NCBI GenBank assembly: GCA_030123675.1
Contig: JASJYH010000004.1
Location: forward strand, 184 to 64,183
DNA: 64,000 nt
DNA from: Anaerolineae bacterium
GTDB taxonomy: Bacteria; Chloroflexota; Anaerolineae; Anaerolineales; Villigracilaceae
Direction: 5' to 3'
The notes beneath the pieces are model-generated. The model was not told the origin of the DNA. It was given only the letters and a program-made list of their open reading frames with translations, and did not search any database. How positions within the stretch are numbered: position 1 is the stretch's first letter; every line of letters starts with the position of its first letter. Shown piece by piece: positions 26,393 to 55,002 of the stretch. A program made the translations under genes and the position numbers.

Positions 26393-26399
26393 ATCATTC

Positions 26400-27983: not shown

Positions 27984-28738
27984 TGAAGACGAGCATACTA
28001 ATTGTCGATGATGAGCCTGTTGCCCGAAAATCTTTAACAGATATATTGCGCTTGGAAGGATACTCTGTTTCATCTGTTCCAAATGGACAAGCCGCGATAG
28101 AGCATATTCGTACTAACCAAATTGACTTAATGATTGTTGATTTACGTATGCCTGGAATGGATGGCCTCGAGGTAGTCCAAGTTGTAAATCAGCTTGCGCC
28201 AGATACCGAAATTGTCCTTTTGACAGCCTACGCTTCTACTGAAACTGCTATTCAAGCCTTACGTTTGCGAATCCACGATTATTTGCAAAAACCAGCTTCC
28301 CCGGCACAGGTATTGGCCAGTGTAAAAAGGGGCATTGAACGACGAGAAATAAGATTACAAGCAAAGGAAAATGGTGGGGATTCATCCGATGCAAGTAAAG
28401 CCTTTGACGCACTAAGCCTAGACGATGGAACAGAAATCGATTTGTCCCGCCGACAAATCAAATTAAACAATACAATAGTAAGCTTAACCCCAGCCGAAGG
28501 GAGATTATTACGTGTTCTATTAGCTAACGAGGGAAAGGTATTTGCGCACCGTGAATTGGTCTTGCTTGTTCAAGGTTATGATACTTCGCAACGAGAAGCA
28601 CCAGAAATTCTTAGACCTTTGGTAAGTCGTTTACGTCACAAATTAGAGGTCTTTCCAGCTCTTGCAGATCATATCGTTAGTATCCGAGGAACTGGGTATG
28701 TCTACGAGGGCATAAAAGATGATATTAGCAGTCGTTAG
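27983..28738 (+). CDS. Response regulator, REC + OmpR-type winged helix
   Basis: The ATG at 27983 overlaps the upstream TAA (TAATG) and follows GGAGG. MKTSILIVDDEP, MIVDLRMPGMDG; C-terminal LTPAEGRLLRVL...IRGTGYVY. Confidence 0.8.
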   Translation: MKTSILIVDDEPVARKSLTDILRLEGYSVSSVPNGQAAIEHIRTNQIDLMIVDLRMPGMDGLEVVQVVNQLAPDTEIVLLTAYASTETAIQALRLRIHDYLQKPASPAQVLASVKRGIERREIRLQAKENGGDSSDASKAFDALSLDDGTEIDLSRRQIKLNNTIVSLTPAEGRLLRVLLANEGKVFAHRELVLLVQGYDTSQREAPEILRPLVSRLRHKLEVFPALADHIVSIRGTGYVYEGIKDDISSR

Positions 28739-29700
28739 CGATTCTTGGATTCGGGTTGTGGTTGACGAAAAGTCAAGTCATTTGGTATACCGGGTGGAGT
28801 AAGCCAGCTTAACCAACTTCCACGCCCGATATTTTTCTGATTCTCTTTAAATTTATCAAAATATACTAAAAATATGCTGGCAAAGAGAATTCCAGCACCG
28901 ACCCATTGTATTGGGGTTAAACTTTCCTTAAGCCATACAATACTTAATCCAATAGCTACTAAAAGCTCTAGCAACCCAAGTAACGAAGTTTGCATACCAC
29001 CCAAATGTTTTACTCCGAGAAACAGGAATAAACGAGATAAAAAAGTGACCAAGGTTAATGCAATAACAGGCCACCAAAGACCTGGACCGGGAAGTGTTCG
29101 ATCAAATATTAAATATGCTGGAAATACAACTAAGCTCATTGCCAGAAGAGTATAAAGAGTTACCGTTGGAGCAGGGATATCATACAAGACCTTCTGATTG
29201 ATAGGGATATGAAGCGCATAAAGTACGGAAGCTAATAACATTTGAGCGACCCCGATAATGTCTATGCTACCGGTTGAAGTATAGGTTAATAATATTACAG
29301 CGACAGTCGCTAGAAATATACGCGCTATTGTAAATCGACTAGGGGGTTGCGAATCTAAAATTAGGACAATTGCAACAATTAAGGGATAAAGGGAGAAGAG
29401 CAGCTGCCCAACTGATGCAGTAACCCGGCCAAGTGCAGCATAATAAAATATAGAACCTACTCCATTTAATAAACCGGCGATTCCGCAACCTAGTAACCCC
29501 GCAGGATAAATATATAAATATTTCCGACGAAAAATAACCATTATTGCGAGTAATAAAATCGTAGCCAGAAATGTTCTTAACCCAACTACCGCTAATGGCG
29601 TGATGTTCAGGTTTATTGCCTGCTTACCAAAAACAGGCGCCAACCCTAAAAACACTGTAGACAGCAGCGCTGCTTGTAAACCTGTCTTGCGTTTCTGCAT
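28735..29700 (-). CDS. EamA/DMT-superfamily transporter (10 TM)
   Basis: 321 aa. Two EamA-like halves of 5 TM each. Sits 6 nt downstream of the ThrC-like-REC gene. Its stop overlaps the stop of the convergent response regulator gene. Confidence 0.8.
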   Translation of the reverse strand: MQKRKTGLQAALLSTVFLGLAPVFGKQAINLNITPLAVVGLRTFLATILLLAIMVIFRRKYLYIYPAGLLGCGIAGLLNGVGSIFYYAALGRVTASVGQLLFSLYPLIVAIVLILDSQPPSRFTIARIFLATVAVILLTYTSTGSIDIIGVAQMLLASVLYALHIPINQKVLYDIPAPTVTLYTLLAMSLVVFPAYLIFDRTLPGPGLWWPVIALTLVTFLSRLFLFLGVKHLGGMQTSLLGLLELLVAIGLSIVWLKESLTPIQWVGAGILFASIFLVYFDKFKENQKNIGRGSWLSWLTPPGIPNDLTFRQPQPESKNR

Positions 29701-29706
29701 TATTTA

Positions 29707-31377
29707 TTATTTTAAAAGCGCACGTACTTCCCCTAGAAATTCATCATTCAAGAACTCCCCTTTTTGCATTAGTGTTTGAATTTGGCCTTTTAGTCTATTT
29801 TTTTCATTGGGTGTTAGTTCCTTGGCTGATGCAACAATGACTGGAATATTTGCAGTGTCTTGATTACGTTTAAGAATTTCAATTACCTCGAAGCCGTCCA
29901 TCTCAGGCATCACAAGATCTAAAATGATCAGATCAGGTTTTTCTTTTTCGATCATAGCAAGTAATTCTTTACCATCCCCAGCTTCAAAAATTGTAAATTC
30001 TCCCTGAGATTGAAGGATTCGACGTATCAGGCGGCGTGATTCAAGACTATCATCAGCGATTGCAATTCGTGGAAATCGTTCCGGTGCAACCCGATTGAGT
30101 GCAGCGAGAAGGCCATCTTGTTGAGGAGTTTCCTCATAACTTGGCAATTCGATATCACGTGACCAATCATCACCAAGCAACCATTGCTCAGCTGGCATTG
30201 TGTGTCCGGTACAATTTATTACTACTGTATCGGTTGATTTGATGACGCCATTTCGAATTAATTTGAACAAGCCAGCGAATGCAACTCCTGCGGCTGGTTC
30301 GAATGAGAGACCCTCCATTTTTGCAATTATATGCATTGCTCGGAAGGCCTCTTCATCACTTACGCTTTCAAAGCAACCACCAGTTTTATCTATACTCTGT
30401 TTGAGTAATATGTAGGTTCGACCAGGGTCACCTGTTGCAAGTGTCTCAATGTGGGTTTGTGGGTGCATTACCGTCAAAGGTTCGTCTAATCCCTTCTTCC
30501 AACTTTCAACCATTGGTGCACACCCATCTGTTTGGATAATCGCAATTGAAGGCAGTTTATCTACCACCCCCATTTCCTTTAATTCCCTGAACCCCTTTGT
30601 GACCCCCAAGGGTCCCATACCACCACTAACTGCTTGAACGTACCAATCAGGACTTCGCCATTTTAAGGATTTGTGAATATTATCCGTTTTGGGGCTCAAC
30701 ATTCTTGTGAGCTGTTCAGCAATCTCAAATGAGATAGTTTTCATTGCTTCGACAGATGATATTGTCCTAGTACCCATGTCTAGGGTAAGATTTCTTTGTC
30801 GGGCAAATTCAGAAGCCATTTTCTTGGTTTGGTCATATGTTCCAGTTACTTTAACGACTTGACTGCCATATAATGCAATCTCATGCATTTTGACTGCGGG
30901 GACGAGACTAGTTAGAAATGCCCAAAGTTTAATTCCCGCTCGGGCAGCATAAGCTGAATAGGATATAGCCACATTCCCCGTAGAAGCCGCGACCAGCTCA
31001 GTGATACCAGCTTCTTTCAATGCCGAAATAGTAACCGCCGCTTGGCGATCTTTAAATGATGATGTCGGTCCTTGGCGCTCGTCCTTAATGAAAATGTTTG
31101 GGCACCCTACCATCATGCCAAGATTTTCAGCCTTAATTAAGGGTGTCCCACCTTCGCCCAAACTAATTAATGGATCTGGATTTTTAATGGGTAACAATTC
31201 GTGATAACGCCAAAGGTCGAATTGCCGATTTTTTAATTGCTTCCCCCATATCTCTGCCACATTACTTAAATCATATTCGGCAATCATCCATTCACTTTTG
31301 CAATTTTCGCAATTTGTGGATGTTGGGTGATAAGCAGAAATACCATTACAATCGAGGCATCTTATTTTAAATGACAT
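29707..31377 (-). CDS. Threonine-synthase-like fold-type II PLP enzyme fused to a C-terminal response-regulator receiver domain
   Basis: 556 aa. N-terminal zinc ribbon (CLDCNG...CENCKS), LGEGGTPL, PLP-lysine motif TSSFKDRQ and ASTGN. The C-terminal ~120 aa form a receiver (IAIADDS, LIILDLVMPEMDG, VIVASAK). Confidence 0.8.
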   Translation of the reverse strand: MSFKIRCLDCNGISAYHPTSTNCENCKSEWMIAEYDLSNVAEIWGKQLKNRQFDLWRYHELLPIKNPDPLISLGEGGTPLIKAENLGMMVGCPNIFIKDERQGPTSSFKDRQAAVTISALKEAGITELVAASTGNVAISYSAYAARAGIKLWAFLTSLVPAVKMHEIALYGSQVVKVTGTYDQTKKMASEFARQRNLTLDMGTRTISSVEAMKTISFEIAEQLTRMLSPKTDNIHKSLKWRSPDWYVQAVSGGMGPLGVTKGFRELKEMGVVDKLPSIAIIQTDGCAPMVESWKKGLDEPLTVMHPQTHIETLATGDPGRTYILLKQSIDKTGGCFESVSDEEAFRAMHIIAKMEGLSFEPAAGVAFAGLFKLIRNGVIKSTDTVVINCTGHTMPAEQWLLGDDWSRDIELPSYEETPQQDGLLAALNRVAPERFPRIAIADDSLESRRLIRRILQSQGEFTIFEAGDGKELLAMIEKEKPDLIILDLVMPEMDGFEVIEILKRNQDTANIPVIVASAKELTPNEKNRLKGQIQTLMQKGEFLNDEFLGEVRALLK

Positions 31378-31389
31378 ACCAGAGATGTA

Positions 31390-34300
31390 TTAATTGGGAT
31401 CGACGCTTACGCGATTTAGGGCATTTTCTATACTATTTATTAAATCTTTCTCTTTAAGTGAACTTTTTTGAAGCAATCGATTGCCTAAATTGTCTACCTG
31501 TTTTTGTTCCTCTGCGGAGAGGTCTGCTCCGGTGATAATTATAACCGGCAAGTCTTTTAATTTTTCATCTTTTCGTAAGTTTTCAAGTATATTAAAACCA
31601 TTCATCTCTGGCATAAAGAGGTCCAATATAACCGCATGGGGTGGGTTGGAGGATAAAGAATTCCAACCAGCAGGCCCACCCTCAGCTAAGATCGGTTTAT
31701 ATTTCCCTTGCTCGGAGAGCATTTTCCCTAACAAACGCAAGTCATTTGGGTTATCGTCAATTATTAGGACTTCTCGAATACTTCCATCACCGTTTAAGCG
31801 GTCAAGAGAACTTACCAGGTCATCTTCAAGGACAGGTTTTACTAAATAGTCGGTTGCACCCAGGTTATATCCTTTATCTTCATCTTCTACAATGCTGCAA
31901 ATTATGACAGGGATGTCTCGAGTTTCGGCCGAAGATTTAAGGTTTGACAAGATTTGCCATCCATCGTAATCTGGCATCATAATATCCAATGTTATCGCAA
32001 AAGGATTTAGGTCTTTCACTTGTTCCGTTACTTTAGAAGGGTCTTTCAAACCAATAACCTTATATCCTTTTGGTTCTAGATACCGTTTATACATGCTGAT
32101 AACTTTAGGGTCATCATCAATCGCAAGAATTAATCGCCCATCTTCAGGTCTAGTGGATTCAATTTTGGTTTGAGAAATAGGTATCGAGAAATAAAATGTA
32201 CTGCCCTTTCCTAATGAGCTATGGACACCGATTTGACCCCCGTGCATTTCGATTAAGTGGTTACAAATTGAAAGCCCAAGACCTGTACCTCCTGCTTTTC
32301 TAGTAAACGAATCGTCTACTTGGGAGAAAGGCTTAAAAAGTTTATCATGATCTTTTTTTGCAATACCTTCCCCGGTATCCGAAACGCTTACCAACACTAA
32401 GGGTTCTTTGCCGGCACCTTCTTCAATTGTAACTTTAACGGTGATTTCACCTTCTTCTGTAAACTTAGCTGCATTTGAAAGGAAGTTGATCAAAACTTGA
32501 CGTATCCGCATTGCGTCCGCGCGAACGATAAGGGGTTTTTCTGGGATGTCCCGTTTAAGCTCTATTGGTTTATCCTTTATCAAACCAGCTGCAGTGGACA
32601 TCACACTGATAATCAATTCGTTGATATTTACATCTTCGAAAGTAAGTTCCATTTTCCCCGCATCAATTCGCGAGAGATCAAGAATATCATTGATGAGACC
32701 TAATAAATGTTGACCAGAGTTGAAAATTGCTGTCAGATCTTGCTGTTGTAATTCGGTAATAGGTCCATCGATTCCCTTGAGAATTACACGTGCAAAACCA
32801 ATGATCGAATTCAATGGAGTGCGCAATTCATGACTCATATTAGCCAGAAATTGACTTTTCAAGCGGTCTACCTCGCGCATTTCCTCTACCGCTTGTTGCG
32901 CGATATTATAGGATCTCGCATTATCGATTCCAACCGCAATTTGGTCTGCTAAAAGTTGTAAAATGGCAATATTATCATCGGTGAAGGCGTTAATTTCTGT
33001 CGAGTGAATATCAATGGTGCCGATAACGCGTTTACCACTTTTTAGCGGGATGGCTGCTTCAGATCGAGTTTCCGATAAAAGGGGGGAAGGATTAACAATA
33101 GATTCAAGGGCTGTATTGTTGTTAATTACTGTTTCGCCACTGGCACTTGATTTACCAACCAAGGATTTTGAATCAATAGCGATTGAATGTTTTTGTTGTT
33201 TTAATTTTTCGCCTACTTCACCAGTAGATTCTTTCAAAACTGCATTAAATCCAGACTCATCAATGATGAAAATTGAGGTGTGATAAAACCCAAATCGCTC
33301 TACAATAAGATTTACTGATCGGTCGTAGATTACGTTCAAATCCAATGTAGAGGTAACTAAGGTTCCGATCTCCCCAGAAGCTGCTAAATATTCATTCCTT
33401 CTATTGAGAGCTTCCTCAGCCTCTTTTCGGACGGTAATATCACTGTGAATGGCCAAAAACCCGAGAATGTTATCGTTTGCATCTAAGATAGGGCTATTTG
33501 TCCCATCTATTGGAATTAGTTTGCCATCTTTTCTTTTATTGATTATTTCCCAGGAAACCGTCTCCTTATTCAGCAGGGTATCCCAAAATATTTTAAATTC
33601 CTCTTTTGGAACCTGCCCTGATTTAATAATCCGTGGATTTTTCCCAAGCACCTCTTCTACGGAATAACCATACACTGTTTTAAAACTAGGATTTGCATAA
33701 ACAATATTTCCTTGAATATCGGTCATGAACACTGCGTCTGCAGAGCGTTCCAATCCCAATCGAAATTTACGACTTTCATCAAATAATTGTGCGTTTTCAA
33801 TTGTAAAACCTAATTGGTTTGCAATAGCTTGTGCTAATGATAATTCTTCTTTTGTTAAGCCAACGGTGGAGTTTCGATAAAGACTAAGGGTCCCAAGTGT
33901 TTTCCCCTTTACAATTAAAGGAACACCATAGAAGCCATAGAGACCAGCTTTAATTTCAGATTTCACATCACAAGGGGCGCCCTTTCGCAAATCATTTATG
34001 GCTAAACTTTCACCGGTGTTGTACACAATTCCACTTAGAGATTTTTCAAGCATCTTCTCTAAATCGTCAGTACCCTTACCTGGCATTCCAATCCGTTCAG
34101 CAAGCTCTAATTTCGCTCTAGCTTCATTAAAAATAGAAATTAATCCGCCTTCAAATTTAAGAACTTCGAGGACTTTCTTTAATACGATGGAAAGAATTTC
34201 TTTAATGTCTATTGATTGGTTTGCAGCAGCCAAAACGGCATTTAAGGCGGCTTGTTCTTCAGCACTCCTTTGGGTTTCTTGAAACAAGCGTGCATTTTCT

Positions 34301-34659
34301 AGCGCTTGAGAAAGTTGATCAGCTACTTGTTTGATGAGTAATTGTTCTTCTGTCCCCCATTTACGTTCCTCTAATTCATCAATTACTTTCAGCGTTGCCC
34401 AGCTATTTTCATCTGTGCGAAATGCAGTCGAGAGCATTGCCGAAGATGATTTGCGATTCCCAGCTGGGATCGTTGAAGTTTCTTTAAGGATTGAAAGATC
34501 CCTTGTGCCAAAATTGGTCGGCTGTTCTTTAACTGTGAGTTTAGAACTTTGAGGCGGTTTGGTTCCATTCTTTTTTGACCGCTTTGATTTCGCTTCAGGT
34601 TCTTTATCGAAATCGCCAAATAACTTATCAAGCCTGTTGTTTAATTTCTTCTTTGACAT
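31390..34659 (-). CDS. Hybrid sensor histidine kinase: GAF-PAS-GAF-HisKA-HATPase_c-REC-REC
   Basis: 1089 aa. PAS (DAVFMTDIQGNIVYANPSFKTVYGYS), H-box ANMSHELRTPLN, G-box GGTGLGLSIC, and two receivers (LAIDDDP...LDIMMPDYDG; LIIDDNP...LDLFMPEMNG). AGGAG sits 10 nt before the ATG. The start overlaps the 3' end of parA by 32 nt. Confidence 0.85.
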   Translation of the reverse strand: MSKKKLNNRLDKLFGDFDKEPEAKSKRSKKNGTKPPQSSKLTVKEQPTNFGTRDLSILKETSTIPAGNRKSSSAMLSTAFRTDENSWATLKVIDELEERKWGTEEQLLIKQVADQLSQALENARLFQETQRSAEEQAALNAVLAAANQSIDIKEILSIVLKKVLEVLKFEGGLISIFNEARAKLELAERIGMPGKGTDDLEKMLEKSLSGIVYNTGESLAINDLRKGAPCDVKSEIKAGLYGFYGVPLIVKGKTLGTLSLYRNSTVGLTKEELSLAQAIANQLGFTIENAQLFDESRKFRLGLERSADAVFMTDIQGNIVYANPSFKTVYGYSVEEVLGKNPRIIKSGQVPKEEFKIFWDTLLNKETVSWEIINKRKDGKLIPIDGTNSPILDANDNILGFLAIHSDITVRKEAEEALNRRNEYLAASGEIGTLVTSTLDLNVIYDRSVNLIVERFGFYHTSIFIIDESGFNAVLKESTGEVGEKLKQQKHSIAIDSKSLVGKSSASGETVINNNTALESIVNPSPLLSETRSEAAIPLKSGKRVIGTIDIHSTEINAFTDDNIAILQLLADQIAVGIDNARSYNIAQQAVEEMREVDRLKSQFLANMSHELRTPLNSIIGFARVILKGIDGPITELQQQDLTAIFNSGQHLLGLINDILDLSRIDAGKMELTFEDVNINELIISVMSTAAGLIKDKPIELKRDIPEKPLIVRADAMRIRQVLINFLSNAAKFTEEGEITVKVTIEEGAGKEPLVLVSVSDTGEGIAKKDHDKLFKPFSQVDDSFTRKAGGTGLGLSICNHLIEMHGGQIGVHSSLGKGSTFYFSIPISQTKIESTRPEDGRLILAIDDDPKVISMYKRYLEPKGYKVIGLKDPSKVTEQVKDLNPFAITLDIMMPDYDGWQILSNLKSSAETRDIPVIICSIVEDEDKGYNLGATDYLVKPVLEDDLVSSLDRLNGDGSIREVLIIDDNPNDLRLLGKMLSEQGKYKPILAEGGPAGWNSLSSNPPHAVILDLFMPEMNGFNILENLRKDEKLKDLPVIIITGADLSAEEQKQVDNLGNRLLQKSSLKEKDLINSIENALNRVSVDPN

Positions 34660-37734: not shown

Positions 37735-37812
37735 AGTTTTTGCTTCCCGATACCTATTTAGAGGTATCTAGAGATTTCATTGCATAATAGAAACGCAATA
37801 TATTGAATCTTA

Positions 37813-40620: not shown

Positions 40621-40663
40621 ATTTTCTCCAAATTAAAAGTCCACTTTTCATTTTTTTCGAATG

Positions 40664-42367: not shown

Positions 42368-42469
42368 ACATAGCCTCGTAAAGGAATATTAGTTCGATTT
42401 TGAGTATTGTTCTTTACTCTAAAAACTTCCATCAATATTATTTTTAGACTTCTAAATCAGATACAAAGA

Positions 42470-43855: not shown

Positions 43856-43940
43856 TCTATTTTTCCATGCAGATTTATTATGATTTTAGCCAATCGGTCA
43901 GAAGATTTGATATTTTTGATCGTGCATATCCATATTCTTA

Positions 43941-46427
43941 TTAAATGTCTGACCTTAAATCTGATTCTAATTCAAGAAGTACATTTGTTCCACCAAGTTG
44001 TCGACCTAATTCTTGCACTGTTGTGCGTAGTATTTCTTCAATATTCGTCGTTGCACCAATTTTTAATGCCATTTCGCCAATAGATTGCTCAAGAGAGGCA
44101 CTGCGCTGGGCATCTTCAAATAAACGAGCGCTATCTAATGTATTACCGATTTCACCAGAAAATGAAACAACATCTGAAATCTCATCGGGTGACCAAGGAT
44201 CATTTGAAGATTGTTTTTCGAGACGCATCATACCGATTGTTATGCCGCGGGAGGAAATGGGTACACTTAAGGTTCTTTGGTCTTTGCTGAGAACAGGTTT
44301 TCCCTTATTAAGCTCTTTCTTAACTTCTGGATCTAAAGTTCCATTTGATTCAGACAACTCACCGTGAATAGAACTGATATACCCTGGGGCCGATTGGCCT
44401 TGTAGCAATAATCTCCATCCGCTCTGGCTGAGCTTGCCAGTGGCCCTGTGAGACCTGGAGAGTGCCTCTTGTATTTCATTCAGCAAAAGTGCGTTTTGGA
44501 TTGCTATGGCCAATTGATCGGCTAATATTTGGAGGGTTGGAATATCATAATCTGAAAATGCATCCGACTCGTTGCTCTGGACGTCTAATACTCCAAAGAT
44601 TTCGCCACCAGAAACGAGGGGTAAGGCTGCTTGTGAATGTGTTTCTGGCAAATCCGGATTGTCAAATTTCACTGCATCTTCGCCAATGTCTAAAGCAATT
44701 TTTGCAACACGATCACTTGCTGCCGTACCCACAATTCCTTCAACCCCAACCTTTAATTTATATTTGCTGGCAAGCATTTTTTCGCCCCCTTTACTGTTGG
44801 CTGCTCTCAGGATCACATAATCATTGAGAGAGTCGACCAAAAATATTCCTACATGATAATATCCAAACCTATTGCTAATGAGGTGTACCGCTCGAGGTAA
44901 GAGATCTTCCAAAGTTCGTTGCTCAGCGATTGCCTTGCCAACTTCTGCTACTGCTTGTATATGTCCAGCGCGTCTTTCTATGTCCCTCGTGCGTTCCGCA
45001 ACAGCACCTTCGAGATTTGTGATTAACCCTTGGGCGGTTGTTGTAACGCTATTTAGCGTTCTCCCCAAGACACCTATTTCATCCCCAGATTTAACTTCGG
45101 CTCTCTTATCGAGATTGCCTGCAGCAACCTCATTTGCCACCTTTGTTAGTCTATCTAACGGTGAGATTATGGAGGTACCTATTCCGTAGGAGGCTAATGC
45201 TGATACAGCGAGCATAATTAATATTATTCCAACTGCACTTGTGAGAGTTTCTTGAGTTTGGGTTTCTATGATTGTATTTGTTGCTACAAAATCTTCAAGC
45301 AATTCATTTTCAGGGACAATTAAACCTAGGCTGAAACCGACTATAGGAATTGGCTTATAAGCGATATAACGATTGCTGCCATTAATATTTATAAGACGCA
45401 CTCCTGACTGACCACTTGTCATTTGCGTGAGCACCTCATTAACCTCTGAAGAGACGCGACCTATTAATGACAGCTCGGCAATATTTACGCTTTGAACTTC
45501 TTCAAGGGTCAAATTGAAATCTTGATACGCAGTTTCTGGCATCTCGAGCAATCTACCTTCCGAATCAATAAGGATGCTATATCCTGAATTTCCTATAGAC
45601 AATGCGCCTACTCGATCAGTTATTGAAGAAAGGTTGAAGTCTATTCCGGCAACACCTCTAAACTCACCGTTGGTATCATAAACTGGAACACTACTGGTTA
45701 CAAACAATCCGGTTTGTGCTGAATTTTGCCAAGGTATCGACCAAACTGCCTTATTGTCAAGTTGTGATACTTTCAATGAACTTTGATACCAAGGAGTGCT
45801 TGTAACACTATAATCCAAGGGTAGGGTAGCAGCTAAATTAATATTCGGGTAATACACGGTTTCCCCTAGATTTCCACCAAAATATACTGCTTCAATTTCC
45901 GGATTTTCAATAAATAATCCTTCTACAAAAAGATCAAGTCCTTTTAGGGCAGCCAACTCAATCGCGATGCTGTCATTTAGCGGAATTGTGCCCGGAAGGA
46001 AAATTGATGAAGCCTCTGAGTTTGAATTATCAAGGGATCCGTTAGGTAGTTGTTTCAATTCCAAATAAGGATTCCACGGACTTTCATCTGAAAGGGGAGA
46101 TCCATTATTGGAGATTACTGTTCCAGTGATAGTACCAAAAATTTCGGTTACATTTTTCAATGATGAGAACAAAAATGCAATATCACTAGCTTCATCTGAA
46201 GCAATCACGGCCAACCGATTTTCGATCTCTTGAGTCACACTCATATCAAATTGATCTACTAAAAAATTATTGGTTTCTCGTGAGCGCGAAAGAACAAAAT
46301 ATCCCATAATTGAAACTGTAATGAGAACGATAAATAAGTTGCCTAATAGGATTTTCGTTTTCAACGAAAAGGAATAACGCAGTTTGGGATTAATTGCTGT
46401 ACCCGTTGAACCTTGATCATCGGTCAT
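43941..46427 (-). CDS. Receptor-like paralog 5: TM, double-Cache-like sensor, TM, HAMP, S-helix, GAF, C-terminal module
   Basis: 828 aa. dCache-like WYQSSLK...VTSSVPVYDTNGEFRGVAGIDFNLSSI...GYSILIDSEGRLL; HAMP; LEGAVAERTRDI; GAF core FGYYHVGIFLVD...FDNPDLPETHSQAALPL...FGVLDVQS. Start overlaps the upstream stop (ATGA). Confidence 0.85.
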   Translation of the reverse strand: MTDDQGSTGTAINPKLRYSFSLKTKILLGNLFIVLITVSIMGYFVLSRSRETNNFLVDQFDMSVTQEIENRLAVIASDEASDIAFLFSSLKNVTEIFGTITGTVISNNGSPLSDESPWNPYLELKQLPNGSLDNSNSEASSIFLPGTIPLNDSIAIELAALKGLDLFVEGLFIENPEIEAVYFGGNLGETVYYPNINLAATLPLDYSVTSTPWYQSSLKVSQLDNKAVWSIPWQNSAQTGLFVTSSVPVYDTNGEFRGVAGIDFNLSSITDRVGALSIGNSGYSILIDSEGRLLEMPETAYQDFNLTLEEVQSVNIAELSLIGRVSSEVNEVLTQMTSGQSGVRLININGSNRYIAYKPIPIVGFSLGLIVPENELLEDFVATNTIIETQTQETLTSAVGIILIMLAVSALASYGIGTSIISPLDRLTKVANEVAAGNLDKRAEVKSGDEIGVLGRTLNSVTTTAQGLITNLEGAVAERTRDIERRAGHIQAVAEVGKAIAEQRTLEDLLPRAVHLISNRFGYYHVGIFLVDSLNDYVILRAANSKGGEKMLASKYKLKVGVEGIVGTAASDRVAKIALDIGEDAVKFDNPDLPETHSQAALPLVSGGEIFGVLDVQSNESDAFSDYDIPTLQILADQLAIAIQNALLLNEIQEALSRSHRATGKLSQSGWRLLLQGQSAPGYISSIHGELSESNGTLDPEVKKELNKGKPVLSKDQRTLSVPISSRGITIGMMRLEKQSSNDPWSPDEISDVVSFSGEIGNTLDSARLFEDAQRSASLEQSIGEMALKIGATTNIEEILRTTVQELGRQLGGTNVLLELESDLRSDI

Positions 46428-48106
46428 ATGTTGTTTTCCTCTTTAGGTTTTGATGAAGGTGCCTTACCATTTTTCTTGCTGGCATCTACATTATCCTCTT
46501 GCAGCAAGCGCACTTCAGCTTCTTGTAAATTAAATGCTTGTTGGATTTCACGAGCAGTCGTTTTAAGTACCGTCTCTAAATCTAAAGTTTCCCGTATTTT
46601 AGAGGTTGCATTTGATATTAATTTGTCTCGATTTGTGCTTTCTCTGGATCGTTCAATATGCCGAATGTTTTCTAATGCAAGAGCGGCCTGATCTGCAACT
46701 TCTTTAGCAATTATCTCTTCTTCCTTGGTCCATTTTTGAAAATCAGATTTACGGTGTAAAGAGATTATTCCAATTTTTTGGCCTCTAAGTACCAAAGGTA
46801 CGTCCACACTGTTTTTTCCTTTTTGAGATTTTGTTTTTGTTATGGGACGAACACCAGAGTTTGAATACTGGTATGCCAATTTTCCGGTTTCTAATTCAAC
46901 TTTCCAGTTCTTTCGAATGTTTTCTCCAGATATTTTCTCTAGTTGCTTTATTACTAATTCAGTCTCACCGATAACTCGGGCATTTTCAATGGCTACCGCC
47001 ATATGATCTGCAAGGGTTTGATATATGTCTAGGTCTTCATATTTAAATGCTTCAAGCTCAGAAGAATGTATATCTAACACTCCTATCACTTTATTTCGAA
47101 CAATGAGTGGTACTGCTATTTCTGAACGTGTCCTAGAAAATTCTAGGTTTTCTAAAATCATGGGGTCTTTGTCGGTTTCTTGAGAAATTCGAGCTTTCCT
47201 CTCAGCGGCAACGAAACCTACAATCCCCTGGGTTCCAACTCCTAGTCTGTAGCCCTTCTCGATAAGTTGTTTTCCACTTTCCGATGAGGCGGCTTGCAGT
47301 TCCGCGTAGTCTCCACGTTCATTAATTAAGTAAATCCCAACGTGATAATAATTAAATTGCTTTGCTATTAGATCTACGCTGCTATTTAATAACTCTTCAA
47401 GTTCTTTTATTTCAGCAGTCTGGCGTGCAACAAAAGCAGAAGTTATTAATTTATTTGTTCTTTGGGTTAATTCTTTTGTTCTTTCGATGACACGGTTTTC
47501 CAATTCAGTTTGTGATTTGTGTAATGTGGCTAGAATACTTTCGGCACGCATTTTAACCTTATTGAAACCCTCATACATCATTGAAATGCCCAACAGAACC
47601 ACTAATGTAATTAGTAAATGAATCGAGCCTGCGCCAACCCAATCTAAAATAGTTCCTTCAACCATCAGCTTGTCAGCAAGTGAAAGATAATTGTTGAGCT
47701 GTAGAAATCCCATCCCAATGATAACGATCTCGCTAAGTATTATTGCAGTCCAACCAGCACGAGTGCCAATTAACAGAGCAGATAGGGTTACAAATGCCAA
47801 CAAAAAGAATAACCCATCTCCTCGAATCCCGGTTTCTAACAAATCGCCAACCCCAATTATTAAGGGCAAGGAAACGAATAAAGTTGCTTTAAGCTTATAT
47901 GGGATATTAATGATGATCGAAAAAACCAGCGTTATATATACCCCAATGTAAATACTCTGTAAATAAAAATCAGTGGCGCTCATTACTGCTGGTATTAATG
48001 CAAATAACCCAAGGATTGCGGAAATGACGAGAATCTTTTGGAGGAAACTTTTCCGCCAATTATCTTGCTCAAGTGTGTGTTCTTGTTTTAGTGATTCCAA
48101 TGTCAT
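46424..48106 (-). CDS. Receptor-like paralog 6: polytopic membrane N-terminus, S-helix, GAF, C-terminal module
   Basis: 560 aa. About 5-6 TM, LENRVIERTKEL, GAF core FNYYHVGIYLIN...SRTRSEIAVPL...IGVLDIHS, and tail VADQAALALENIRHIE...ATSKIRETLDLETVLKTTAREI. ATGA overlaps at both ends. Confidence 0.85.
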   Translation of the reverse strand: MTLESLKQEHTLEQDNWRKSFLQKILVISAILGLFALIPAVMSATDFYLQSIYIGVYITLVFSIIINIPYKLKATLFVSLPLIIGVGDLLETGIRGDGLFFLLAFVTLSALLIGTRAGWTAIILSEIVIIGMGFLQLNNYLSLADKLMVEGTILDWVGAGSIHLLITLVVLLGISMMYEGFNKVKMRAESILATLHKSQTELENRVIERTKELTQRTNKLITSAFVARQTAEIKELEELLNSSVDLIAKQFNYYHVGIYLINERGDYAELQAASSESGKQLIEKGYRLGVGTQGIVGFVAAERKARISQETDKDPMILENLEFSRTRSEIAVPLIVRNKVIGVLDIHSSELEAFKYEDLDIYQTLADHMAVAIENARVIGETELVIKQLEKISGENIRKNWKVELETGKLAYQYSNSGVRPITKTKSQKGKNSVDVPLVLRGQKIGIISLHRKSDFQKWTKEEEIIAKEVADQAALALENIRHIERSRESTNRDKLISNATSKIRETLDLETVLKTTAREIQQAFNLQEAEVRLLQEDNVDASKKNGKAPSSKPKEENNI

Positions 48107-50037
48107 GATTTGCTCTTTTCCCCATTAACCTCAATCTCGATAGTTGCTTCAGAAGCATCTAACACTAGACCCAATTCTTTAACCACGGTTTGAAGTATTC
48201 CATCGATTGTTGTTGAACCCCAGATTTTATTTGTAATCTCATTAATAATATTTTCTCGGATAACAGTGGTTTGACTTTCTTTTATTAATCGGGCATTTTC
48301 AAGTGCAATAGCAGTCTGGGTACCAATTGCCTGCATCCAGGTTTCATCTTCTGGTGATAATCTTTTTTCCCCTGAGAGACTAAGCTTACCAATAACTTGA
48401 CCTCGAAGTGCTACCGGCACTTCAATTTTGGTCCCTTTTGACTTATCTGGTTCATTACCAACGGATATTGATAAGTCCCCAGGGGGTATATTTTTCTCGA
48501 GCCATGCTTCATGTAAATATTGTTTTTGATCTTTTCGCATTTCTTGTAAGCCCTGACTTATCTCTTGATACAGTGATGAATTTCCTATTGCTATTGCAAG
48601 CTGGTTTGCTAAGCCCTGCAAAGTATCAAGGTCTTTTTCGTTAAAATCAGCCTCTTTTGTTGATTGCAGATCGAGCGCACCAATAATGCGATCACCAATT
48701 ATTAATGGCAAAGATACTTCCGATCTTGTATATGGAAGCAGTGGATTGTTAAATTTTATTGCTTTTTCCCCAATGTCGAGTGCAATCTGTGCCTTTCGCG
48801 AACGAATACTTAACGCGATGAGGCCTTGGTCGTTTATGTCGAAGCGATGATTGCTTTCCACCAATACCCGACCGGCTTCGCCGCTCGCGCCCTTGAGCTC
48901 AATGTGTCGGCCGTTAGGGTCGGTAAGATAGATTGCAGCATAGTAGTACTCAAATTCTTCAACTATTATATTTACAACCTGATTAATAAGCTCCTTTGTG
49001 TCAAGAGTTGAAGTTGCAACAAGGCCAACTTTCATTATTGATTTTAACTGTGCTGTTCGGTCTACGATTTCCTTATCTAAACTAGTTTGCAAGCTCTCTA
49101 ACCTTGTGGCTAATCGATTGAAGTAAATAGCTAAGTCAGATATTTCATCTGACGAGGTTATATTGGCCCGTTGTGAGAGATCACCCAAATCAAACTTTTT
49201 AAAGGTTTCATTAATATTTTTTACCTGATCTGAAATAGATCGTGAAACAATTAGTGAAAGTAATAGCCCTAATAGAAGGATAACTCCACTCATCAAAATA
49301 AATTGAAATTGAAGGTCTTGTAATACCTTTTGGGCTGACACTTCTTGATTTAATGCTATAACTGCTTGGTTGTAACCTATTGGGCCAATTATTAATATAC
49401 TTGCCAAAAGAAGCAAAGAAACGAGTGCTTGTACTTTTATTCCTAATAATGGTACCGTCCGGTCTGATAATTGATACTCAAATTTTGTAGGAAATAATGC
49501 CAGTCTAGCCGGTATGAGCATTCGTTCAAGCAAATAAGTAGCTAGTAAGACTGTAGTGATAACCGAAACAATCCCACCGGTTAATGAAAAAATTACTTGG
49601 TCGAGAGACGAATTAAGTACATAATAATGATAAGAAGTGATTCCCGATACAATGATGATTAATGAAAAAAAACCTGATGTAAGTCCATAGCGCCAAGTAA
49701 ATCCTGTAATTTGTTTCCAGGCATTTTTTTGGAATTCGAAATCATCGTCTGATTTACCAATTTTCTTAATTTGTGTTAATCGCTTTCGTGCTATTTTGGA
49801 GGTCCCGATTGCATATATGAAGAGAATGAATGAGGTAACCAAAATCAACACTGGCAATAAGGTTGTGATTGAACTAAGCTGTTGAGCCCCAAAACTACTG
49901 TTCATTTGAATTGAAGCAACACCTAATATGGTTCCAGGAATGCCAATTAATTGTGAAATGGCTACACAAATAATCAGATACCAGCCCCCAGTTCTGTAAA
50001 ATATTTTGTTGAAAAAAGAACTCAATATTCGAATCAT
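48103..50037 (-). CDS. Receptor-like paralog 7: ~6 TM, HAMP, S-helix, GAF, C-terminal module
   Basis: 644 aa. HAMP (ISDQVKNINETFKKFDLGDL...), LDKEIVDRTAQL, GAF core FEYYYAAIYLTD...LPYTRSEVSLPL...IGALDLQS, and tail IGTQTAIALENARLIKE...EITNKIWGSTTIDGILQTVVKELG. Confidence 0.85.
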   Translation of the reverse strand: MIRILSSFFNKIFYRTGGWYLIICVAISQLIGIPGTILGVASIQMNSSFGAQQLSSITTLLPVLILVTSFILFIYAIGTSKIARKRLTQIKKIGKSDDDFEFQKNAWKQITGFTWRYGLTSGFFSLIIIVSGITSYHYYVLNSSLDQVIFSLTGGIVSVITTVLLATYLLERMLIPARLALFPTKFEYQLSDRTVPLLGIKVQALVSLLLLASILIIGPIGYNQAVIALNQEVSAQKVLQDLQFQFILMSGVILLLGLLLSLIVSRSISDQVKNINETFKKFDLGDLSQRANITSSDEISDLAIYFNRLATRLESLQTSLDKEIVDRTAQLKSIMKVGLVATSTLDTKELINQVVNIIVEEFEYYYAAIYLTDPNGRHIELKGASGEAGRVLVESNHRFDINDQGLIALSIRSRKAQIALDIGEKAIKFNNPLLPYTRSEVSLPLIIGDRIIGALDLQSTKEADFNEKDLDTLQGLANQLAIAIGNSSLYQEISQGLQEMRKDQKQYLHEAWLEKNIPPGDLSISVGNEPDKSKGTKIEVPVALRGQVIGKLSLSGEKRLSPEDETWMQAIGTQTAIALENARLIKESQTTVIRENIINEITNKIWGSTTIDGILQTVVKELGLVLDASEATIEIEVNGEKSKS

Positions 50038-50066
50038 TTTATTCCCTGTATTTTAAGCATCCACAA

Positions 50067-52172
50067 TTAGTCATCGGATTGAAATGTGCCAATTTCTATT
50101 TGTACATTCTGTGCGCCCGTAGCTCTAATTAGTTCATTAACAGTGGTTGAAATAATCGTTCTCATATCAGTAGAATGACGAATTTTACTCGTAATTTCAT
50201 TTAGCTGTCGCTCTCGATCTGCCTGCTTCCGTATCTGTTCAATTAATCTCGCATTTGCGATAATCGCTGCAAGACTTCCAGCTAGCGTTCCTAGCATTTC
50301 TTCGTCATTTTTTGTGTAGGCACCAACTTGTTCACTTTCAACATTTATTACCCCAAGTATGTCATTCCTAAATATTAGGGGAATTGCTAATTCTGATTTG
50401 GTGTTCGGGCTAACTTTTATATAACGTGAGTCTTGCGTGACATCCTCAATCCGCAATGTCTTACGGTGCTCAGCCACCCACCCAGTAATTCCATCACCGA
50501 ATGGTATTGATACAGCTGTTGATTCCTCAGAATATCCAACCCATGCCTTTGTAAGCAAATTTTTATGGTCCGAATCAGATAGCAATATAGCGACTCGATC
50601 CCCCCCCAAAGTCACTTGTAAACCATTAACTGTGCTTGATAAAGCCTCTTCAAGGGTTGTACCTGAAGCAGCCGATGTTGTGATGTGGTGAAGCAACCTG
50701 TGCTGTGAGAGATGTTCTTGAGTTTCTGCAAACAACTCAGAATTGTTGACTGCTATAGCCAGTTGATCGGCGAGGATTTGAAATGTTTCAATATCGTTGG
50801 TGCTAAATGAATATGGGATTGTGCTTTGCACGTCAAGCACACCAAGTATTCTATCTCCTATTTTTAATGGAATGGCTGCTTCGGCTTGTGTGTCTGGGAG
50901 TAAGGGATTAAGTTTATGTGTAGCATCCTTTGAGATGTCGTTCACAACTAAGGCTTCACCTTGGCCTGCAACATAACCAACGGTAGATTTTGATCCAACT
51001 GCGAGTTTATGAGCTTCGCGTTTCATCTTTATGCCGGCATCGCCAGTTGCCTCGCGCACAATTGCATTATTAGATAAGGGATCTATTAGAAATACGGCCG
51101 CATGATAAAAGTTGAATCTGTCCCGGATCAAATTAACTGCTCGCAACAAGAGCTCATTTAAATCAAGAGCGCTACTGATATCGCGAGCAATCTTAGCAGC
51201 GACTTGCACCTGTGAAAGTCGACGTTTTAGACTGTCGAAGCTACGTGCATTTTGCAAAAACCATGCGATTTTTTGAGCAAACTTTTCAAATTCACTTAAA
51301 TCTGATTTTCTAAACGCATTTTCATTCTTGGAGTCCTGCAAAAATAATGCCCCAACTACGTGGGTATCAATGATTAACGGAACACCCATCCATGATTTTG
51401 AGGGAGCGCCGATCCTTTTTGCCCCTGATTTTTCAATCTGTTCTTGGTTTTCTAGCAATAATGGCTTTTTTGTACGTATGATTATTGAAGCAAGTCCTTT
51501 TCCTAATGGGAACGGATCGATTGAACGAGTTACGCCATCTTCAACCATAAAAGGTATGCTGATAGTTTGTTTATTCTCATCGTAAAATGCGATGGTAAAG
51601 TCATCGTGGTTTAATAATATTTTTACTTGTTCATGTAGTGAGTTAAACACAACACTGATATCTTCAAAAGAACCTATAGCTTGGGTTTTATCGCTACCTG
51701 ATATTGAGTCTGAAGATGATTTGGAAATTTCCTCAATTAAATTCGCTTGGTTGAATATTGTTGTAACCAATCTCGCAGAATTGATATAAGGCTGTAAAGC
51801 AGTCTTCGTCAGCTTATGAACACCATTCCCACCAATGAGCAAAACCCCCTGGATCTTTCCTTGGCTTTCGATTTTAATTAAAGACAAATTTTCGGCCCCT
51901 ATTTGGGTTGCGAAATTGAAAATTTCAGGAATGTTAGTTTTTGTAGAGACCGAATCGATTTTTATTTTGTCTTCAAAAAAGTCATTGAAATATTCTGTAT
52001 TGACAGAAATACTTTTGGGTAGGTTTTCTTGGGTAACTTCCCCTGGAATGTTAGATACACTGATGAGTGATAAAGTCTCATTTTCAACCTTAAACACCGC
52101 TATTGGGAATTCTAAAGCTCCCAATGATTTTGATAGAGTTTTTAGGGTGGATGAAACAATATCAGTTCTCAT
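50067..52172 (-). CDS. Receptor-like paralog 8: soluble protein of about four GAF-like domains ending in the same C-terminal tail
   Basis: 701 aa, no TM. Third GAF FNFYHAAVFLID...LPDTQAEAAIPL...LGVLDVQS, fourth GAF ...TKSELAIPL...LGVINVES...IANARLIEQ, and tail RKQADRERQLNEITSKIRHSTDMRTIISTTVNEL. Confidence 0.85.
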   Translation of the reverse strand: MRTDIVSSTLKTLSKSLGALEFPIAVFKVENETLSLISVSNIPGEVTQENLPKSISVNTEYFNDFFEDKIKIDSVSTKTNIPEIFNFATQIGAENLSLIKIESQGKIQGVLLIGGNGVHKLTKTALQPYINSARLVTTIFNQANLIEEISKSSSDSISGSDKTQAIGSFEDISVVFNSLHEQVKILLNHDDFTIAFYDENKQTISIPFMVEDGVTRSIDPFPLGKGLASIIIRTKKPLLLENQEQIEKSGAKRIGAPSKSWMGVPLIIDTHVVGALFLQDSKNENAFRKSDLSEFEKFAQKIAWFLQNARSFDSLKRRLSQVQVAAKIARDISSALDLNELLLRAVNLIRDRFNFYHAAVFLIDPLSNNAIVREATGDAGIKMKREAHKLAVGSKSTVGYVAGQGEALVVNDISKDATHKLNPLLPDTQAEAAIPLKIGDRILGVLDVQSTIPYSFSTNDIETFQILADQLAIAVNNSELFAETQEHLSQHRLLHHITTSAASGTTLEEALSSTVNGLQVTLGGDRVAILLSDSDHKNLLTKAWVGYSEESTAVSIPFGDGITGWVAEHRKTLRIEDVTQDSRYIKVSPNTKSELAIPLIFRNDILGVINVESEQVGAYTKNDEEMLGTLAGSLAAIIANARLIEQIRKQADRERQLNEITSKIRHSTDMRTIISTTVNELIRATGAQNVQIEIGTFQSDD

Positions 52173-52178
52173 GGAAAA

Positions 52179-52628
52179 TTAACTCAATTCCCAAACAGGC
52201 GCACCCTCTAATATTTGGCGAATTTGTTCTGGAAAATGATCGGGGTCTAGAGGTTTTCCTAGGAATCCATCGAACCCTGCGGAACGTGCTTTCGCAAGCT
52301 GTTCGCTACTGGATTCAGCTGTGACTGCGACAATAGGGATGGATTTTAAGTGTTCTGTAGCGCGGATTTTTTTCAAAGCCCCATAACCATCTTCATATGG
52401 AAGGCGAATATCCATAAGAATTAAATCAAGACGAGGAAGAGTATCAGCATATTCTACTACCTCATAGCCTGAGGTTTTCCACTCACAATGAATACCAAGA
52501 TAACCGAGCATGCGAGCAATTAATACGAAATTAGATACATTATCTTCTACTACGAGGACAGTTGTATCCTTTGGAATTGCTGGTCTTCTGGGTTTTGTAT
52601 TAGTAGTTTTTGATTCAGTGTCTGCCAT
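52179..52628 (-). CDS. Single-domain CheY-like response regulator (receiver only)
   Basis: 149 aa. VLVVEDN, LILMDIRLPYEDG and FLGKPL motifs. Lies 6 nt upstream of paralog 8. Confidence 0.85.
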   Translation of the reverse strand: MADTESKTTNTKPRRPAIPKDTTVLVVEDNVSNFVLIARMLGYLGIHCEWKTSGYEVVEYADTLPRLDLILMDIRLPYEDGYGALKKIRATEHLKSIPIVAVTAESSSEQLAKARSAGFDGFLGKPLDPDHFPEQIRQILEGAPVWELS

Positions 52629-53004
52629 CTAAGCTCCTCAGGAAGTGCTCAATTTGACTCGAGAGCAAATCAATGTCTATTGGTTTTTGTATGTATCCAT
52701 CACATCCAGCTTCTAATGAGCGTTCGCGATCTCCCCGCATTACATTAGCCGTTAAGGCTATGATGGGAATATATTCAAGACCAGGTGTTTTTTTTATCTT
52801 GGAGGTTAGAGAATACCCATCCATATCCGGCATATTGATATCCATGAGAATTAGGTTAGGCTTGGTTTCGTTTAATATCTCCATAGCTTGAGCAGCATCT
52901 GTTGCTTCTAAAAGATCATATCCTTCAGACATTAGTATCCTTCTAACAAGTGTTCGGTTGTCGATATTATCCTCGACATATAAGATTGTGGCATTGTTTG
53001 ACAT
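52615..53004 (-). CDS. Single-domain CheY-like response regulator (receiver only)
   Basis: 129 aa. ILYVEDN, LILMDINMPDMDG, IALTAN and YIQKPI motifs. GGAG SD upstream. Overlaps the next receiver gene by 14 nt. Confidence 0.85.
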   Translation of the reverse strand: MSNNATILYVEDNIDNRTLVRRILMSEGYDLLEATDAAQAMEILNETKPNLILMDINMPDMDGYSLTSKIKKTPGLEYIPIIALTANVMRGDRERSLEAGCDGYIQKPIDIDLLSSQIEHFLRSLDGRH

Positions 53005-54840: not shown

Positions 54841-54867
54841 GCCCGCCCCATCATGACCGGGGCGGGC
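54841..54867. terminator. GC-rich hairpin in an AT-rich spacer (possible terminator downstream of tRNA-Gly; orientation ambiguous)
   Basis: Stem GCCCGCCCC / GGGGCGGGC with a 9-nt loop. Short T-runs follow on both strands (CTTT on plus; GGGTTTT 7 nt away on minus). Confidence 0.35.
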
Positions 54868-55002
54868 TGCTTTAATTGTCAAATTCTAAGGATTTCGAAA
54901 AATTTATGGGATTAACTTCCGCTCATCGCAAGTGTAGTCGACATGGCGTGCTTGTTAAACACCCTAATTAGAGTAAGTCGATCTGTACAAGTGGGGATAA
55001 AG

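Follow-up and report, generated by a model that had tools for sequence, protein, structure and literature searches.

A conserved signalling gene cluster of the Anaerolineales with output-less GAF receptors, one hybrid histidine kinase, a ParA-type ATPase and a receiver-fused threonine-synthase-like enzyme

The 64,000 bp stretch of DNA analysed here, referred to as the window, is part of contig JASJYH010000004.1 (positions 184 to 64,183; assembly GCA_030123675.1) from an Anaerolineae bacterium of the order Anaerolineales. Fourteen consecutive open reading frames (ORFs) on its minus strand, spanning 28735–53004, make up one conserved, tightly packed co-directional unit of this order. In Pfam and NCBIfam searches, the gene content is two stand-alone receivers (REC1 and REC2), eight GAF-domain paralogs (G3 to G10), a ParA ATPase, a hybrid histidine kinase, a pyridoxal phosphate (PLP) enzyme of the PALP family with its own receiver (ThrC-REC) and an EamA permease. 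By sequence criteria, the cluster belongs to the two-component family, and this assignment includes a putative pair of ParA and its partner. It is perhaps best seen as a two-component pathway with many inputs and a metabolic output, a reading that is somewhat less likely than not.

In the proposed pathway, the eight output-less paralogs would be receptors reading diverse membrane and cytoplasmic signals. A signal would run through HAMP, signalling helix (S-helix) and GAF to a terminal junction helix, which would pair in trans with the N-terminal junction/GAF segment of the kinase, each receptor feeding a different signal into a single autophosphorylation switch. The kinase would phosphorylate REC1 and REC2, which may be sinks, connectors or feedback elements, as well as the C-terminal receiver of the ThrC-like enzyme, the activity of which would be switched. 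The co-transcribed EamA permease would move the substrate or product of this enzyme across the membrane. The translationally coupled ParA would distribute or segregate the assemblies of kinase and receptors along the cell by way of the N-terminal peptide of the kinase. A more far-reaching version is that this is a new class of signalling machine and the equivalent of an array, in which truncated receptors plug their GAF-junction helix into an incomplete counterpart of this module at the N-terminus of a soluble, ParA-positioned kinase and an amino-acid-like compound, gated by phosphorylation, is released through EamA; such a machine is distinctly improbable.

The spacers between the 14 genes range from -32 to +102 nucleotides (nt). 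All of the co-directional minus-strand genes described in the original prediction, which was made from the DNA sequence alone, are reproduced by the ORF table of the window. The same is true of the overlaps of 14 nt between REC1 and REC2 (52615–52628), 4 nt at both 48103–48106 and 46424–46427, 1 nt between G10 and ParA (35413) and 32 nt between ParA and the kinase (34628–34659), as well as of the gaps of 6 nt between REC2 and G3 (52173–52178) and of 12 nt and 6 nt on either side of the ThrC-like gene. The remaining intergenic gaps are 29, 85, 102, 43 and 78 nt. These had been described as containing no convincing terminator, with which a consensus scan and its shuffle control agree. No intergenic gap of the 14-gene unit contains a minus-strand terminator-like hairpin, and over the region as a whole such sites are no more numerous than expected from shuffling.

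Nearly all of the predicted domain assignments are right, the exception being the HAMP domain, which was given to all eight paralogs and is seen by Pfam in five (G4, G6, G8, G9 and G10, with that of G8 being weak). Pfam confirms the single histidine kinase and the five receiver domains, all of which keep the phospho-acceptor Asp (D55 in REC1, D73 in REC2, D892 and D1013 in the kinase, and D487 in ThrC-REC). It is the H-box His and HATPase_c domain of the kinase, together with receivers bearing an acceptor Asp, that place the cluster among two-component systems at the level of sequence. The two receivers previously called CheY-like are single-domain REC proteins, and the label means no more than that. 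The absence of chemotaxis, cyclic di-GMP, cyclase and DNA-binding outputs inside the cluster also holds, as Pfam and NCBIfam find no MCPsignal, CheW, Hpt, CheB/R, GGDEF, EAL, HD-GYP, cyclase or helix-turn-helix domain in the 14 proteins. The adaptation enzymes CheR and CheB were found neither in the cluster nor in the rest of the window. Positions and domain structures are given in Table 1.

Table 1. Genes of the cluster, from its upstream end, and the candidate peptide at the start of the kinase. Positions are those of the window; lengths are in amino acids (aa); TM, transmembrane segment; E, expectation value.
Feature	Position	Strand	Description
REC1	52615..53004	-	Stand-alone receiver, 129 aa, first gene of the operon; Pfam Response_reg E 1.1e-28; Asp55
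REC2	52179..52628	-	Stand-alone receiver, 149 aa; Pfam Response_reg E 1.5e-20; Asp73
G3	50067..52172	-	Soluble multi-GAF protein, 701 aa; 3 Pfam GAF, no TM; tail model at aa 572-694
G4	48103..50037	-	644 aa; 5-TM, HAMP, S-helix, GAF, mini-GAF, tail
G5	46424..48106	-	560 aa; MASE11 (6 TM; Pfam E 6.3e-17), S-helix, GAF, mini-GAF, tail
G6	43941..46427	-	828 aa; TM, dCache, TM, HAMP, S-helix, GAF, mini-GAF, tail
G7	42470..43855	-	461 aa, shortest paralog; 2-TM, S-helix, GAF, mini-GAF, tail
G8	40664..42367	-	567 aa; TM, ~110-aa periplasmic loop, TM, HAMP, S-helix, GAF, mini-GAF, tail
G9	37813..40620	-	935 aa; 6-TM, dCache, TM, HAMP, S-helix, GAF, mini-GAF, tail
G10	35413..37734	-	773 aa; TM, ~265-aa periplasmic domain, TM, HAMP, S-helix, GAF, mini-GAF, tail
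ParA/Soj-type ATPase	34628..35413	-	261 aa; Pfam AAA_31 E 3.7e-47; overlaps the kinase gene by 32 nt
Hybrid histidine kinase	31390..34659	-	Soluble, 1089 aa; only kinase of the cluster
Candidate ParA-binding/activating peptide, kinase codons 1-14 (MSKKKLNNRLDKLF)	34618..34659	-	Proposed from conservation
ThrC-like PLP enzyme (ThrC-REC)	29707..31377	-	556 aa; N-terminal Cys4 ribbon, C-terminal receiver; PALP E 2.6e-62, REC E 1.2e-19
EamA/DMT permease	28735..29700	-	321 aa, 10 TM, last gene; Pfam EamA E 3.4e-30

Related loci were obtained by scanning a single genome for each GTDB species, which gave 80 loci that are essentially all from Anaerolineales, and by a scan with G3, which gave 80 further metagenome loci showing the front half of the cluster. 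ORFs were called in these loci and compared with the window proteins, and tblastn was used for gaps; ParA in four GC-rich loci and REC1 in the locus L044 were detected by tblastn. The arrangement recurs in the 160 related loci, which is beyond chance. A kinase is directly upstream of ThrC-REC in all 76 of the informative loci and EamA is directly downstream of ThrC-REC in 76 out of 76. ParA precedes the kinase in 63 out of 64 loci and a paralog precedes ParA in 57 out of 58. Scattered orthologues, which the original prediction had named as a finding that would count against it, are therefore not what is seen; the genes are tightly linked.

In the metagenome loci, the gene order is polyprenyl synthase, REC1, REC2, G3, G4 (polytopic-HAMP), G5 (MASE11), variable Cache/HAMP paralogs, then ParA. 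The REC1 orthologues have 63–83% identity and occupy the same position in these loci, and those of REC2 have 75–85% identity. Clusters that could be followed from end to end have 0 (L044), 3 (L019), 5 (L107), 6 (L149) or, in the window, 8 paralogs. The flanking genes differ in approximately one fifth of the loci, in which the core is intact. Since both the flanks and the paralog number (0–8) vary, the linkage of the core has survived rearrangement.

Some of the loci have unusual records. Two with a complete cluster and 70% identity in ThrC-REC, L027 (DYLS01000027.1) and L065 (JADJSY010000060.1), are filed as metagenome-assembled genomes (MAGs) of Blastopirellula marina and Lewinellaceae; these taxon labels are probably binning errors and not cases of horizontal transfer. 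In a further copy of the cluster, on a contig of 3.68 Mb (L161; ERZ25039503 contig_27555), the gene calls for several paralogs and for the kinase are broken into adjacent pieces, probably through frameshift errors of long-read assembly. Splits of this type explain many of the 200–300 aa 'GAF domain-containing proteins' in the databases as receptor fragments.

The seven membrane paralogs all have an S-helix of the form LExRVx[ED]RT between the membrane or HAMP part and the GAF domain, containing the 'ERT' signalling-helix signature as defined in PMC1592074. A Pfam scan of the eight paralogs (E<=0.01) identified only GAF, HAMP, dCache, MASE11 and an MCP-like PDC sensor, and PF00015 was not among the matches. 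Every paralog continues for approximately 100–200 aa beyond the Pfam GAF domain. Alignment and PDB profile search identify this region as one GAF domain's C-terminal half, after which comes the N-terminal helix of a second GAF. For G8, aa 252–567 were modelled with AlphaFold from a 71-sequence alignment; the model has a predicted local distance difference test (pLDDT) score of 92.6 and contains a complete GAF, a helix of 52 residues, a reduced GAF of four strands, a helix of 45 residues and one last short helix. Foldseek with this model gave only GAF, tandem-GAF and phytochrome sensory module matches. The phytochrome matches stem from the GAF-GAF spine only, and when the GAF domains of the paralogs are aligned, no invariant column holds a Cys such as binds the chromophore in bilin photoreceptors. 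A hidden Markov model (HMM) of the tail matches 427 of the 429 complete paralog ORFs from 160 loci, with a median of 9 residues beyond the tail (90th percentile 21). The members of the family all stop here, none with a further domain. Residues in the tail are conserved at 90% or more.

An output domain was not found in the paralogs by Pfam, NCBIfam, PDB profile search or AlphaFold with Foldseek, which bears out the description of these proteins as output-less. A hidden output domain in the 100–200 aa after the GAF was rejected, since this region is a reduced GAF and the alpha5-to-alpha1 junction of a further GAF. The tail is likewise not a degenerate DHp/HisKA domain, since positions 266–312 align to the N-terminal helix of solved GAF domains. 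The junction profile matches 96,344 proteins in a representative library of 1.84 billion proteins, headed by giant poly-GAF proteins that have as many as 21 repeats, and on this ground a novel system-specific domain was rejected. From these comparisons, the tail is a truncated piece of an ordinary GAF array, with no specialised MCP-like signalling tip.

The poly-GAF junction family is very large, with 12,755 proteins at E<=1e-30, and twenty of the giant poly-GAF proteins (P0241–P0260) are 1,800–3,950 aa long with 10–21 copies of the junction motif. GAF repeat number is highly plastic in the family of G3 and the kinase. The G3 orthologues range from 700 to approximately 1300 aa and fall into two classes, of ~700 aa and ~1300 aa. 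Orthologues of the kinase are 960–2034 aa, with up to 7 GAF and a varying number of PAS domains (for example L016:4631-10735 and L008:4152-9980).

The kinase consists of an N-terminal peptide, a disordered linker, a beta-hairpin and junction helix, GAF, PAS, GAF, HisKA, HATPase and two REC domains, with His610 in the sequence SHELRTPL and Asp892 and Asp1013 as the receiver acceptors. Kinase aa 76–168 match the HMM of the paralog tail with 46 bits and also align with the tail. In 65 orthologous kinases, the first structured element is this segment of C-terminal-half GAF and junction. Within a 43-sequence alignment, aa 101–135 are the best conserved of the first 300 residues (mean commonest-residue fraction 0.90), and the GAF domain that follows has a commonest-residue fraction of 0.55–0.65. 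AlphaFold predicts a beta-hairpin at 75–93 and a 46-residue helix at 103–148, then a complete GAF. We infer that the output-less paralogs may regulate the kinase in trans.

A minimal variant of the cluster is found in L044 (Anaerolineales MAG Yes70-19; JASEHI010000025.1, L044:5307-12636). It encodes a fusion protein of 1259 aa with 5 GAF, PAS and HisKA-HATPase domains and no receiver. Residues 43–573 of the fusion match G3 163–687 with 53% identity and residues 503–1252 match kinase 99–828 with 44% identity, the joint between G3 and the kinase being exactly in the shared junction segment. REC1, REC2, ThrC-REC and EamA are retained; the membrane paralogs, ParA, the N-terminal peptide of the kinase and the kinase receivers are absent. 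This looks like a deletion that arose when G3 and the kinase recombined at their homologous junction segments. The natural G3::kinase fusion argues that G3-type sensors and the kinase act together, and the minimal core would be REC1, REC2, a GAF sensor, the kinase, ThrC-REC and EamA.

It is also conceivable, although unlikely, that the paralogs are independent GAF sensors or ligand buffers, co-located by tandem duplication and serving partners elsewhere or the convergent kinases next to the cluster, with the kinase sensing alone through its GAF-PAS-GAF region. The varying paralog number (0 to 8) and the varying order near ParA would be consistent with this, as would the 27-bit match of the adjacent GAF kinase (23639–26392) to the junction module and the fact that kinase orthologues themselves carry as many as 7 GAF. 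However, the short or negative spacers and lack of terminators point to co-transcription of the paralogs with the kinase, and the single tail-bearing match that was inspected in its context, in L161, is part of such a cluster. In addition, the membrane paralogs, ParA and the N-terminal peptide are lost jointly in L044, where G3 has joined the kinase.

The deviant Walker A motif of ParA (K11GGVAKTT) identifies it as of the ParA/Soj type, and its best PDB matches are 8ray, a ParA family protein (1.8e-43), and Soj of Thermus thermophilus, 1wcv (1e-37). Its gene overlaps that of the kinase by 32–41 nt in most loci. Genes for ParA/MinD ATPases adjoin those for their cargo, and the partners of these ATPases bind through a positively charged, disordered N-terminus (PMC10241942). 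The kinase starts with the basic pattern M-[SP]-K-K-x(2-4)-[KN]-R-L-x-x-L-F, which in brief is the near-invariant MSKKK..NRLDKLF. The core K-R-L-x-x-L-F is nearly invariant (column entropy <=0.41 bit); the 50–100 residues that follow have an entropy of >3 bits, with Pro, Ala and Lys abundant among them. M1, K3, R9, L10, L13 and F14 are each at least 90% conserved in 43 orthologues. As L13 and F14 are outside the ParA overlap, the conservation of the peptide is not a by-product of the overlapping frame. AlphaFold predicts a helix at residues 4–18, followed by residues 22–71 with pLDDT <50.

Judged by its sequence and model, the kinase has the adjacent position and basic disordered N-terminus described in PMC10241942 for a partner, which is why the kinase itself is proposed as the likely ParA partner. 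The positioning-type ATPase of the original prediction is plausible in view of the ParA/Soj fold matches and this candidate partner. As cargo for ParA, a histidine kinase seems to be of a new type; no description of one in this role was found in the searchable literature, which is incomplete.

The original prediction had proposed a system like a chemosensory array, with GAF modules in place of the signalling domain of the methyl-accepting chemotaxis proteins (MCPs). In its strict form, this would be a true analogue of chemoreceptor arrays, in which the receptor GAF/junction tails and the kinase form a cooperative lattice, with GAF as the MCP tip and ParA as ParC/PpfA. The many receptors with MCP-like inputs (dCache, HAMP, polytopic and soluble) for one kinase, the single-domain receivers at the operon start and the uniformly conserved C-terminus of the receptors would suit such a lattice, and ParA is inside the operon as in the ParC/PpfA chemotaxis operons (PMC10241942). 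However, there is no CheW-like scaffold, CheA P5 domain, MCP hairpin or adaptation enzyme. GAF-GAF junction helices are known as dimer spines and not as lattice builders, the tail is generic to poly-GAF proteins, and L044 does without any membrane receptor. An array of this kind is quite improbable, and the substitution of GAF for the MCP signalling domain is unsupported, the tail being an ordinary GAF-GAF junction of the kind present in ~96,000 proteins and a CheW-like adaptor being absent.

The ParC/ParP system of Vibrio and the PpfA/TlpT system of Rhodobacter sphaeroides resemble the cluster in that many diverse receptors (Cache, HAMP and soluble) serve one kinase, in the single-domain receivers and ParA-family gene encoded in the operon, and in a partner protein with a basic N-terminal peptide. 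In contrast to these chemosensory systems, the cluster has no MCP domain, CheW, CheA (Hpt/P5), CheB or CheR. Its kinase is a classical HisKA hybrid kinase, itself the candidate ParA partner, and its output is a PLP enzyme rather than the motor. As every defining Che component tested is absent, the cluster is not a member of the Che family.

ThrC-REC, the enzyme on which the proposed two-component pathway would converge, is a PLP enzyme of fold type II that belongs to the threonine-synthase family. Lys109, in the motif SFKDR, and Cys7, Cys10, Cys23 and Cys26 are invariant, and Asp487 is invariant in 12 orthologues. SFK109DR and ASTGN (131–135) align to K61 and S84–N87 of T. thermophilus ThrC and both motifs are invariant. 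The best PDB match is ThrC of Aquifex (2zsj, E 1e-43), followed by those of M. tuberculosis and T. thermophilus. Likeness to ThrC thus extends to the PALP fold, the Schiff-base Lys of SFKDR and the ASTGN loop. The NCBIfam threonine-synthase cut-offs are missed, with 256.3 bits for NF006050 (cut-off 303) and 154.3 bits for TIGR00260 (cut-off 167.1). Hundreds of full-length relatives with 66–81% identity all carry the receiver, and those that are named are from Anaerolineae or Anaerolineales MAGs. CheB, PleD and RpfG are also fusions of receiver and enzyme; in these the receiver is N-terminal, in ThrC-REC it is C-terminal.

EamA is a generic permease of the drug/metabolite transporter (DMT) family by NCBIfam. 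Because of the fusion of the enzyme to the D487 receiver, the spacers of 12 nt and 6 nt and the adjacency in 76 out of 76 loci, the output suggested in the original prediction, an amino-acid-like compound made under phosphorylation control and then exported, would be a reasonable reading of the end of the operon. Among response-regulator outputs, a PLP enzyme from the threonine-synthase family seems to be of a new type. No description of a ThrC-receiver fusion was found in the literature, the searchable part of which is incomplete.

Alternatively, ThrC-REC may be a housekeeping threonine synthase, with a receiver that tunes biosynthesis or acts as a phosphate sink and an EamA that is either unrelated or an efflux valve for threonine and homoserine, all of this in the service of internal metabolic homeostasis and not of a signal that is secreted. 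The proposal is partly compatible with the multi-input pathway. It would account for the identity of 66–81% across the order, for the retention of the PLP Lys and ASTGN and for genuine threonine synthases being the best PDB matches. RhtA of E. coli, a DMT family protein, exports threonine and homoserine. Yet the protein falls below both of the NCBIfam ThrC equivalog cut-offs, the residues that reportedly contact the substrate phosphate are substituted (see below), and it would be unusual for a receiver-fused housekeeping enzyme to end a 24-kb sensor operon. A housekeeping role of this kind is quite improbable. Least credible of all is that the paralogs are non-functional remnants of decaying histidine kinases that have lost their catalytic halves, for although they do stop within the apparent first helix and strand of a further GAF, 427 of 429 orthologues across the 160 loci stop at the same point with frames intact, at least 90% conservation of the tail residues and a confident AlphaFold model.

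Several observations weigh against the multi-input pathway in the form proposed here. Hpt is missing from all 14 proteins, though the kinase bears two receivers of its own. The junction segment is generic, being found in 96,344 proteins with poly-GAF proteins at the top, and homology is therefore no proof of a specific docking site; the neighbouring GAF kinase (23639–26392) also matches the tail HMM, weakly, at 27 bits. All of the loci come from one order and the housekeeping neighbours polyprenyl synthase, TrmFO and M28 peptidase are often syntenic too, so that part of the conserved linkage is inheritance. When ThrC-REC is aligned with T. thermophilus ThrC (1uim) by HMMER, T88 is replaced by V136, N154 by M201/G202, S155 by T203 and R160 by S208, and the GNAGN loop for the PLP phosphate is replaced by SGGMG. 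T88, N154, S155 and R160 are reportedly the residues that contact the phosphate of O-phosphohomoserine (Omi et al. 2003), and the substitution of these positions makes the substrate of ThrC-REC uncertain. An invariant residue near the substituted sites, R204, might compensate. ThrC-REC could also be the only threonine synthase of the cell, and ParA could have another cargo.

Other systems share individual features with the cluster. The Bacillus stressosome (RsbR paralogs, RsbS and RsbT) likewise has paralogous output-less sensors with variable N-termini and a common C-terminal module acting on one kinase. The common module there is STAS, and no STAS domain was found by Pfam in any cluster protein, the module here being GAF and a junction helix. 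The receptors of the cluster are mostly membrane proteins and its kinase is a histidine kinase, whereas that of the stressosome is a serine kinase. No evidence points to a large assembly, icosahedral or otherwise, for the cluster. In the GacS system of Pseudomonas, the accessory sensors RetS and LadS act in trans on a central kinase by forming heteromers with it via homologous dimerisation helices, which is also the idea proposed for the paralogs. RetS and LadS are complete (hybrid) kinases encoded at scattered loci, whereas the paralogs have no DHp or catalytic (CA) domain and are in tandem with the kinase gene. Kinases of the NarX/NarQ type, with the order TM-HAMP-S-helix-GAF(-like), are identical in architecture to the paralogs as far as GAF. 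What follows in such kinases, DHp and a catalytic domain, is absent in all eight paralogs and in 427 out of 429 orthologues, and the fold matches of the paralogs are to tandem-GAF and GAF-PHY spines. Neither HAMP-GAF receptors without outputs nor the cluster as a whole were found described in the literature, as far as it is searchable, in keeping with the earlier statement that no characterised system of this composition is known.

The cluster is adjoined by a convergent plus-strand operon (23639–28738) encoding two kinases, a GAF-containing histidine kinase (917 aa) and a REC-containing histidine kinase (527 aa), and a DNA-binding OmpR-type regulator (263 aa). The stop codon of this operon overlaps that of EamA (28735–28738), and a terminator would not fit between the two units. 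The convergent operon is beside the cluster in 51 out of 65 loci; it is absent from the other 14, which keep the core, and from L044, and is treated as a separate module, not as the missing transcriptional output. GC content is 37–43% in 20001–56000, including the neighbouring two-component genes, and 44–48% in the flanks (1–20 kb and 56–64 kb). A mobile or foreign island is not supported, given the housekeeping surroundings and the same chromosomal context in most relatives, although the GC content of the cluster is approximately 5% below that of the flanks.

Upstream of REC1 there is approximately 2 kb of AT-rich DNA (53005–55001; 31–38% GC) with few ORFs, extending to a minus-strand tRNA-Gly(CCC) gene (55002–55074). 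The gap between polyprenyl synthase and REC1 is usually 240–480 nt in related loci. This region has no match in the related loci by blastn or tblastx, no Rfam match and no repeat resembling a phage attachment (att) site, and its only notable ORF encodes a hydrophobic protein of 88 aa (53833–54099). It could be a decayed insertion beside the tRNA or a long regulatory leader. A perfect 12 out of 12 match to the sigma-70 consensus (TTGACA, 17 nt, TATAAT) is located on the minus strand at 55107–55135, about 30 nt upstream of the tRNA gene. An Rfam search of the window found only two tRNAs.

In the usual signalling schemes, there is one sensor per kinase, there are many kinases per regulator, or there are many MCPs per CheA. 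The cluster suggests a fourth wiring, in which many output-less sensors would act on one classical histidine kinase. It provides handles by which this may be tested, namely the uniform terminus of the receptors, the matching conserved start of the kinase, the natural fusion of receptor and kinase, and the candidate ParA partner peptide on the kinase. The hosts are abundant uncultured bacteria of sludge, sediment and groundwater communities. If the more far-reaching version were true, cells may use the compound released through EamA to communicate or to cross-feed one another. A regulated uptake or release of some amino-acid-like compound by these bacteria would bear on cross-feeding within such communities.

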